A stretch of 10,456 nt of DNA from a virus, in the UHGV virus genome UHGV-0112874; one strand, 5' to 3'. The notes below the pieces were generated by a model. It made no database searches. It was not told the DNA's origin and saw only the letters and a list, made by a program, of their open reading frames with translations. How positions within the stretch are numbered: position 1 is the first letter of the stretch; the number at the start of each line of letters is the position of its first letter. Made by a program: the position numbers and the translations under genes. Shown piece after piece: positions 10,264 through 10,456 of the stretch.

Positions 10264-10444
10264 TGGTGAATCCCCCTGTGCGGAGGGGCGGTTAATGACA
10301 GTTAGTTGATATGGCGTAAACCGACATGAGGCATGCCGCGGATCCTGTCTGGTCATTGCAGGATTCACCGGGAGGCACCCGGCACCATGCATCTGGTGAA
10401 ATAAATGTGCATACGTAATGCCCCTCTTCGGAGGGGCTTTTTTT
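10264..10444 (+). ncRNA. Candidate ~180-nt structured small RNA ending at the strong terminator (speculative)
   Basis: Abrupt switch from AT-rich to GC-rich DNA with hairpins CCCCT-GTGCGG-AGGGG (10273-10288), GGATCCTG...CAGGATTC, CCGGG-AGGCA-CCCGG, then the terminator. Possible promoter -35 TTGATA (10226-10231) / -10 TAATAA (10251-10256). No convincing ORF with an RBS. Confidence 0.2.
10420..10444 (+). terminator. Strong rho-independent terminator
   Basis: GCCCCTC (10420-10426) - TTCG - GAGGGGC (10431-10437) followed by T7 (10438-10444). Confidence 0.8.
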
Positions 10445-10456
10445 CGGAAAAAGCAC

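Follow-up and report, generated by a model that had tools for sequence, protein, structure and literature searches.

What does the GC-rich segment that closes this stretch of prophage DNA encode? The window analysed here (the whole stretch of 10,456 nt, from UHGV virus genome UHGV-0112874) is AT-rich shortly before its end, with a GC content of 0.25-0.33 over 9700-10299, and the composition then shifts to 0.455 over 10200-10399 and to about 50% over the last 230 bases. A preliminary description had placed a GC-rich island with hairpins and a strong terminator at 10264-10456, and had proposed an sRNA or the 3' end of a late transcript. Composition, folding and a terminator scan confirmed the switch, the hairpins and the terminator GCCCCTC-TTCG-GAGGGGC-T7 at 10420-10444, and the statement that no ORF fits also held: zero plus-strand ORFs end inside the segment, and a coding reading was not borne out. 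Two minus-strand ORFs overlapping the element (9976-10392 and 10292-10456) were unconvincing; the larger one, of 138 aa, has no Pfam match, and the PGAP annotation of the 94%-identical relative L001 shows no CDS at the corresponding position.

The Rfam search that had been suggested as a check returned a full-length match to RF02076 (STnc100) at 10232-10449 on the plus strand, covering model positions 1-206 of 206 with 123.8 bits, 2.6 times the gathering score of 47 (E 1.8e-27). At a permissive threshold, the other Rfam families gave sub-threshold noise alone (rsmX, Ysr49), with no riboswitch or leader family. The consensus helices of STnc100, namely the closing helix, the CCCCC/GGGG, variable and CCGGG/CCCGG hairpins and the terminator, can all form in the window sequence, where GC content is 0.49 in the Rfam match and 0.57 in the core at 10260-10391. 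It is near certain that the GC-rich island is a complete copy of the prophage STnc100 sRNA gene, related to PasD and EcOnc27; relatives of STnc100 are PasD1/2 of EPEC and EcOnc13/EcOnc27 of EHEC. Across 5,426 complete E. coli genomes, no sequence exceeds 94% identity to the element, and its single close match there is plasmid-borne. As an annotation the gene itself is ordinary, and its family has already been linked to Hfq and to virulence-associated prophages. What is new beyond the family assignment is a pseudoknot in the conserved 5' half, which is absent from the consensus structure line of RF02076.

The window covers the junction between the early-right and late regions of a lambdoid prophage. 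Up to position ~8240, phage mEp460 and Stx2 phages match its backbone at about 96% identity. The main features of the window are:

2117-2806, minus strand: cI-like repressor
within the window: CII-like gene, Ash/Rha-type ORF and KilA-N
6399-7148, same strand as the element: antiterminator Q (Pfam PF03589)
8022-8251, same strand as the element: three tRNA genes
8250-10230: AT-rich island of 2 kb, GC 0.25-0.45
within 9348-9728, minus strand: iraM-like ORF

The element thus lies downstream of Q, the tRNA cluster and the 2-kb AT-rich island, on the strand of Q and the tRNAs. Just 12 bases of the window remain past it, and of the location between Q/tRNA and lysis genes the upstream half is seen. 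The AT-rich island occupies the site where related phages have stx2AB; it is missing from the 5,426 complete E. coli genomes bar one plasmid, and the only close relative has IS elements interrupting it. In phage phiSTEC1575-Stx2k the order after the tRNAs is stx2AB, a 5'-truncated STnc100, iraM and holin. The iraM-like ORF of the window encodes 115 aa without a Pfam match, about 90% identical to an E. coli plasmid protein that carries the annotation anti-adapter IraM; iraM-like genes adjoin STnc100 in about 30 IMG/VR loci as well as in phiSTEC1575-Stx2k. At the left border of the island, 80 bases past the tRNA cluster, a terminator-like hairpin with a T-run lies at 8331-8350 on the plus strand. 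The middle tRNA gene (8100-8173, plus strand) was given an abnormal two-base anticodon (tg) by ARAGORN and escaped the Rfam tRNA model; its counterpart in the related Stx2k phage is tRNA-Arg(tcg), and the gene may be a degenerate tRNA. Further upstream, Rfam placed isrK and C4 antisense RNA in tandem at 4068-4144 and 4169-4256 on the plus strand, inside a 493-aa ORF (3708-5189) whose Pfam 'Ash' match (aa 117-211) overlays the same DNA. By analogy with the c4-icd-ant arrangement of P1, the true start of the antirepressor (Rha-like) gene may lie downstream of these RNAs.

The element itself is composed of the following parts:

10226-10254, plus strand: candidate sigma-70 promoter, -35 TTGATA (10226-10231), N17, -10 TTTAAT (10249-10254)
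10262-10389, plus strand: structured core, about 128 nt
10262-10268, plus strand: P1 5' strand CAUGGUG, pairing with 10383-10389 and closing the core
10272-10288, plus strand: H1, CCCCC, loop UGUGC, GG-A-GGG, pairs from 10272-10287 to 10276-10282, A10284 bulged
10294-10299, plus strand: pseudoknot 5' strand AAUGAC, pairing with GUCAUU (10352-10357) in the H3 loop
10300-10339, plus strand: variable insert (H2 region), running into the conserved CGCGG motif at 10337-10341
10340-10366, plus strand: H3, GGAUCCUGU, loop CUGGUCAUU, GCAGGAUUC; the loop holds the pseudoknot 3' strand (10352-10357)
10368-10382, plus strand: H4, CCGGG, loop AGGCA, CCCGG, directly abutting the P1 3' strand
10383-10389, plus strand: P1 3' strand CACCAUG, with covariation as for the 5' strand
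10390-10419, plus strand: linker CAUCUGGUGAAAUAAAUGUGCAUACGUAAU, 30 nt, mostly unpaired, candidate seed and Hfq-contact region
10420-10444, plus strand: intrinsic terminator GCCCCUC-UUCG-GAGGGGC followed by U7
10445-10456, minus strand: probably the first part of a convergent terminator, truncated where the window stops

Comparison of about 160 Enterobacterales relatives revealed that P1, H1, H3 and the 6-bp pseudoknot covary. Helix cells were paired in 94.8% of cases, compared to 78.4% in shuffles (none of 500 as high) and 39-45% in slid controls, and the covariation result was replicated in an independent sequence set. For P1, 94-95% of the cells were paired, with changes on both sides in 4 of 7 pairs in alignments A1 and A2 and 6 of 7 in A3; variants among the relatives include AUGGUG/CACCAU, GUGGUG/CACCAC and GCUGUG/CACAGC. 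H1 was paired in 98.6-99.7% of cells and showed rare compensating variants (CCUUUC/GAAAGG, CCCAUC/GAUGGG, GCCCC/GGGGC, CCACC/GGAUGG); the bulge at A10284 fits, since the nucleotide there varies between A, C and U. For H3 the figure was 89.7-92.8%, with two-sided changes in all 8 pairs; this held also for alignment A2, which was built on a model lacking H3. H4, with 98.6-100% of cells paired, is almost invariant, so that covariation neither supports nor contradicts it, and it partly served as a search anchor. Folded by itself, the core yields the nested helices P1, H1, H3 and H4. Single-sequence folding energy exceeds that of shuffles only modestly (z -2.0, with 7 of 200 shuffles as good; core z -1.6).

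The pseudoknot was paired in 88.9% and 93.4% of cells in two model-based alignments, all 6 pairs changed on both sides, and each pair was represented by 4-6 pair types. These alignments were fitted to the helix, as the covariance model included it, and slid windows together with an alignment-free test served as controls. In the alignment-free test, 80% of 92 unique cores had their own segment complementary to their own H3 loop (shuffle p<0.05), with 20 different pseudoknot hexamers among the cores; for the window sequence by itself p was 0.16. The slid controls (39-48%) and the alignment-free test argue that the pseudoknot is no artefact of fitting. Its strands differ by lineage, with AUCAGC/GCUGAU, CUGGUG/CACCGG, AAUGAC/GUCAUU, CUAGAC/GUCUAG and GCCAGGUCG/UGACCUGGC as examples. 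A MAFFT alignment of 52 representatives gave 95% pairing for P1, 99.6% for H1 and 92.8% for H3; by itself it gave just 58.7% for the pseudoknot, a low value that we attribute to register slips and for which the model-based alignments and the alignment-free test were needed. The one structural study of the family that was found in the literature, in which the pseudoknot is absent, relied on RNAalifold, which is unable to predict pseudoknots. Our data show that the 6-bp pseudoknot belongs to the conserved 5' half of the STnc100 family.

Besides the helices, some junctions and loops of the core are invariant (GAAUC, the UNNGC loop, GCG and the AGGCA loop), and the core is much better conserved than the tail. 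The last two bases of the CGCGG motif open H3, and its GCG is nearly invariant among relatives. The H2 region varies widely in length and sequence. Three adjacent palindromes, GCATGC, CCGCGG and GGATCC at 10331-10345, had been regarded as probably coincidental, and we agree: their positions coincide with the variable H2 region and the first bases of H3, even the closest relative, L001, no longer has CCGCGG (GCATGCTGCGG), and most relatives carry CGCGGATTC or CGCGGGTTC in place of GGATCC. The CCCCT...GGAGGGG design described as common to two hairpins is present in the window, in the hairpin at 10272-10288 and in the terminator arms. As a feature of the family it has to be rejected, since H1 is constant across relatives whose terminators differ freely, and variants of H1 are unmatched in the terminators.

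Where would transcription begin? From the promoter position, as read in the sequence, the predicted start falls at 10261-10263, directly at P1. A consensus promoter scan missed the hexamers at 10226-10254 because its rule for the -10 hexamer demands A as the second base. On visual comparison, the window promoter resembles the PasD2/L108-type TTGACT/TTGATT-N17-TTAAAA in both sequence and spacing. Among 111 non-redundant flanks, TAnnnT was found at -15 to -10 from P1 in 66 (59%), compared to 12-17 (11-15%) in control windows, and TTG peaked at -38 to -34 relative to P1. Upstream flanks are unrelated between lineages, yet a -10-like hexamer recurs at a fixed distance. The 5' end of PasD2 (NC_011601 741157; estimated by RNA-seq, with a northern as size check) is located 2 nt upstream of AUGGUG, and the RNA ends at the terminator (PMC8550237). 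The window promoter, the positional signal and the PasD2 ends together lead to a predicted RNA of about 183 nt, from ~10261 to ~10444. The boundary drawn earlier at 10264 was therefore too far downstream, as the functional unit would begin at the promoter (10226) and the RNA at ~10261. A predicted promoter at the family distance from P1 supports the window copy as its own transcription unit. The commonest E. coli promoter type of the family has CTCACAATTCAG conserved about 55-65 nt upstream of P1 (for example in L101, L130 and L133); this motif sits upstream of the -35 region and resembles a CRP half-site (TCACA), and the promoter type of the window is without it.

At the other end of the RNA, the fold of 10390-10444 (-15.5 kcal/mol) leaves the linker largely unpaired. 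The linker corresponds to the hypervariable segment of the STnc100 family, and in PasD1/2 the equivalent segment beside the terminator contains the predicted seed UGUGAG and RIL-seq chimera ends (PMC8550237). Hypervariability and the location of the PasD seed suggest by analogy that the linker may be the seed region of the window RNA. The terminator has 7 pairs, 6 of them G-C, and the scan detected 2 terminator-like sites where 0.6 were expected; in relatives, equivalent terminators lie at a median of 47 nt past the core. With a rho-independent terminator and U-tail after an accessible single-stranded stretch, the element has the layout expected of an Hfq-dependent base-pairing sRNA. Beyond the window end, L001 continues with AAAAAAGCACGCAATGGGCGTGT, a minus-strand hairpin followed by a T-run, which is why the last 12 bases probably belong to a convergent terminator. 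An EHEC prophage carries AgvB on the minus strand at the equivalent position, back to back with STnc100, and L001 has a weak AgvB-like match at 6250-6305 (16.8 bits, under the gathering score).

Around 270 loci were gathered by exact-block scans of IMG/VR and GTDB genomes. Model matches were confined to Enterobacterales, among them Escherichia, Salmonella, Citrobacter, Enterobacter, Klebsiella, Raoultella, Kosakonia, Pantoea, Erwinia and Rahnella. Matches to the 18-mer in Streptomyces, Micromonospora and others were ascribed to chance, none having a model match, and two matches in tiny contigs of non-enterobacterial assemblies look like contamination. Upstream neighbours in relatives are Q or a methylase and downstream neighbours a SASA esterase or holin, and the element is always on the late-gene strand. 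Copies in one locus all share a strand, as do recognisable neighbours. Tandem arrays of 2-5 STnc100 copies occur, perhaps with more in one Pantoea plasmid; arrays are present in L010 (2265-3380, minus strand), in L244 and L230 (Pantoea plasmid pAPP145_2) and in L243. In the arrays of L010 and L243, inspection of the flanks indicated that each copy has promoter-like upstream sequence and a divergent linker, and the L010 array lies after prophage tRNA genes. Among 134 non-redundant units, about 15-20 lead directly into a Shine-Dalgarno sequence and an ORF with no terminator detected; the share of units with a terminator, 52%, is a lower bound, as the simple finder undercounts (it missed, for example, the terminator of L243). 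In other Enterobacterales ordinary ORFs begin 26-135 nt downstream of the core, and products encoded after it include small phage proteins, a lipoprotein, a KdgM-like porin and a MarR-like protein. A lineage without an obvious terminator has CTGGTAAATCGGTAGCTCGGACTATTAGGTGC conserved about 90-130 nt downstream of the core (L019, L032, L086, L103, L021 and L100). In L312 (3585-3760, phiSTEC1575-Stx2k, after stx2B) the P1 5' strand and H1 are missing, and H3, H4, the P1 3' strand, linker and terminator are kept; such a 5'-truncated copy could be obtained only as the 3' end of a longer (stx2 or late) transcript.

Several relatives have been detected as RNAs. In strain EDL933, STnc100_4 gave a northern signal, and all 11 listed STnc100 copies had transcriptome reads, ten of them more than 300, with ribosome footprints on some copies (PMC5331693). 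PasD1/2 were seen by northern as an RNA of about 172 nt with Hfq-dependent stability and many RIL-seq partners (PMC8550237). EcOnc27, which is bound by Hfq, overlaps STnc100 downstream of stx2B (PMC12711010), and RpoD binding was reported at Salmonella STnc100 copies (PMC10794520). The window element shares with STnc100 the same helices and, on its upstream side, the late-region prophage context, which in relatives is after Q/tRNAs and before the lysis cassette. STnc100 is multi-copy in pathogenic strains, and its upstream neighbour in relatives is stx, DUF3927 or TerB, in contrast to the AT-rich iraM-like island of the window. PasD1 and PasD2 (of EPEC E2348/69, homologues of EcOnc13) have in common with the window the promoter type, the start at P1, the position downstream of a PF03589 Q and the layout of P1, H1, pseudoknot (AAUGAUC/GAUCAUU), H3, linker and terminator. 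In PasD, however, H1 is shortened and H4 is lost, and our own covariance model scores it at 37.9 bits compared to 89.8 for the window. The PasD linker has the seed UGUGAG, where the window linker has AAAUAAAUGUGCAUACG instead; the targets are thus expected to differ from those of PasD. Features typical of PasD, namely the absence of H4 and the seed UGUGAG beside the GGCUGCGCA...GCAGCC terminator, were not found in the window element, which we assign to STnc100 proper because H4 is kept, the linker is without UGUGAG and the terminator is another one. EcOnc27/sRNA103 of O157:H7, downstream of stx2B, overlaps STnc100, is Hfq-bound and has the same kind of terminator as the window. The 3'-UTR-like copy after stx2B that lacks P1 and H1 is that of phiSTEC1575-Stx2k, the Stx2k phage examined here; the window copy, in contrast, is complete and has a predicted promoter of its own.

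The anti-sRNAs AgvB and AsxR of EHEC prophages share the prophage neighbourhood with the window element and differ from it in their opposite strand, their different sequence, their much smaller size (62 nt) and their role as sponges for core sRNAs; nothing matching their families was found in the window element. Lambdoid phages also produce other structured RNAs near a transcript start, at or before terminators in late or early operons, such as the lambda PR'-tR' 6S RNA and HK022 put. A lambda-type PR' leader (6S RNA) was dismissed, as the element is about 3.1 kb downstream of the Q stop, past the tRNAs and the AT-rich island. A put-type RNA was discarded likewise, since a search of HK022 with covariance model R1 gave no match up to an E value of 10, as was a link to IpeX/DLP12, the quuD-essD region of K-12 DLP12 being without an STnc100 match. 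A riboswitch-like attenuator was considered unlikely on the grounds that terminators vary without co-variation with H1 or P1 and that there is no Rfam riboswitch match.

We consider it probable, by homology, that the window carries a complete, independently transcribed STnc100-family sRNA gene acting through Hfq and base pairing. The sigma-70 promoter at 10226-10254 would initiate transcription in the host at ~10261, right at the closing helix P1, and the first ~128 nt would fold into a compact multi-helix domain (P1, H1, variable H2, H3, H4), locked by the 6-bp pseudoknot that joins the segment after H1 to the H3 loop. The open linker of about 30 nt would follow, and the terminator at 10420-10444 would end the RNA of about 183 nt. 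As in the relatives, Hfq would presumably bind and stabilise the RNA via terminator and U-tail, and the RNA may pair with host and prophage mRNAs via its variable linker, which would select the targets. The conserved 5' domain, which would bury the 5' end, is most likely a stabilising or scaffold module. In addition, the terminator could stop unmodified RNA polymerase coming from the island and the tRNA genes before it reaches the lysis genes, while Q-modified polymerase would read through. The hypervariable, open linker and the published data on relatives make an Hfq-associated base-pairing sRNA the best-supported mechanism. Against it stand the promoter, which fails a strict consensus scan, and a folding energy about 2 sd better than shuffles.

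Three other readings were weighed against the sRNA gene. The pseudoknotted core might be the functional part, either as a cis-acting 5' leader (riboswitch- or attenuator-like, directed at polymerase or ribosome) or as a protein-binding domain, with the sRNA tail as one cargo. Conservation of the core far above that of the tail, its invariant junctions and loops, the covarying pseudoknot and the 15-20 of 134 units that go directly into an ORF speak for such a function, and in the window lineage the H1 3' arm is identical to the terminator 3' arm and could pair with the terminator 5' arm, a pairing that the MFE structure of the whole RNA contains. Nevertheless, terminators change freely without a matching change in H1, which implies that there is no conserved antiterminator; many copies are immediately followed by a convergent sRNA gene or a second terminator and not by a regulated gene; PasD, without H4, is still an abundant Hfq-dependent sRNA; and no similarity to Rfam riboswitches or leaders was found. 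Hence we judge this reading unlikely for the window. In a broader form it deserves somewhat more credit, as a tentative possibility: the core of about 110-130 nt may be an autonomous pseudoknotted domain (for protein or small-molecule binding, or for an unusual protection of the 5' end), a portable promoter-proximal module of Enterobacterales prophages that is placed before sRNA tails and moron mRNAs, base pairing being secondary. The core may indeed have a function beyond the sRNA model, since it is too elaborate for a 5' stabiliser and precedes ordinary ORFs elsewhere.

The second half of the earlier alternative, the 3' end of a late transcript, would mean that the element is not a gene of its own but a structured 3' UTR and terminator of an upstream late or island transcript, perhaps processed to a stable fragment. 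It is inside the late operon downstream of Q, and in Stx2 phages a 5'-truncated copy directly follows stx2B, so that this option does apply to some relatives, such as the copy in phiSTEC1575-Stx2k. The window copy, in contrast, is full-length: it retains both P1 and H1, and its predicted promoter stands as far from P1 as is usual in the family. In PasD2, whose promoter is of the same type, the mapped 5' end falls at P1. Moreover, the iraM-like gene, the one gene that can be recognised in the island, is encoded on the other strand, no plus-strand ORF ends near the element, and between the tRNAs and the element there is the terminator-like site at 8331-8350. For the window copy, family membership, promoter and the PasD2 5' end thus favour the sRNA, and a 3' UTR appears quite improbable. 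We give least credence, as very improbable, to a function at the DNA level (a recombination linker or boundary for exchange of late modules) or to a small protein, MVNPPVRRGG, from the ATG at 10263. The element does sit at a boundary where different inserts occur (stx, the iraM island, esterase), the ATG at the start of P1 opens a 10-codon ORF, and some EDL933 copies have ribosome footprints (PMC5331693). On the other hand, four helices show compensatory changes, including G-U pairs that are sensible on plus-strand RNA alone; the ATG becomes GTG, GCG or GCT in step with its pairing partner; the length and sequence of the peptide would differ between copies; and the relatives are detected as RNAs.

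With the sRNA gene as the preferred reading, the conserved half of STnc100 is a pseudoknotted domain at the predicted transcription start, and the variable linker holds the one mapped seed, that of PasD. A conserved 5' structure combined with a variable seed reverses the usual sRNA design, and a concrete structural model of the family results. The position of the element after an iraM-like island at the stx2 site is relevant to the exchange of late-region cargo and to the insulation of the lysis genes. Furthermore, ordinary ORFs follow the same core in other genera, which points to a modular 5' element in the morons of prophages. If the core is truly an autonomous module, the base-pairing sRNA activity of copies such as that of the window would be a secondary elaboration.
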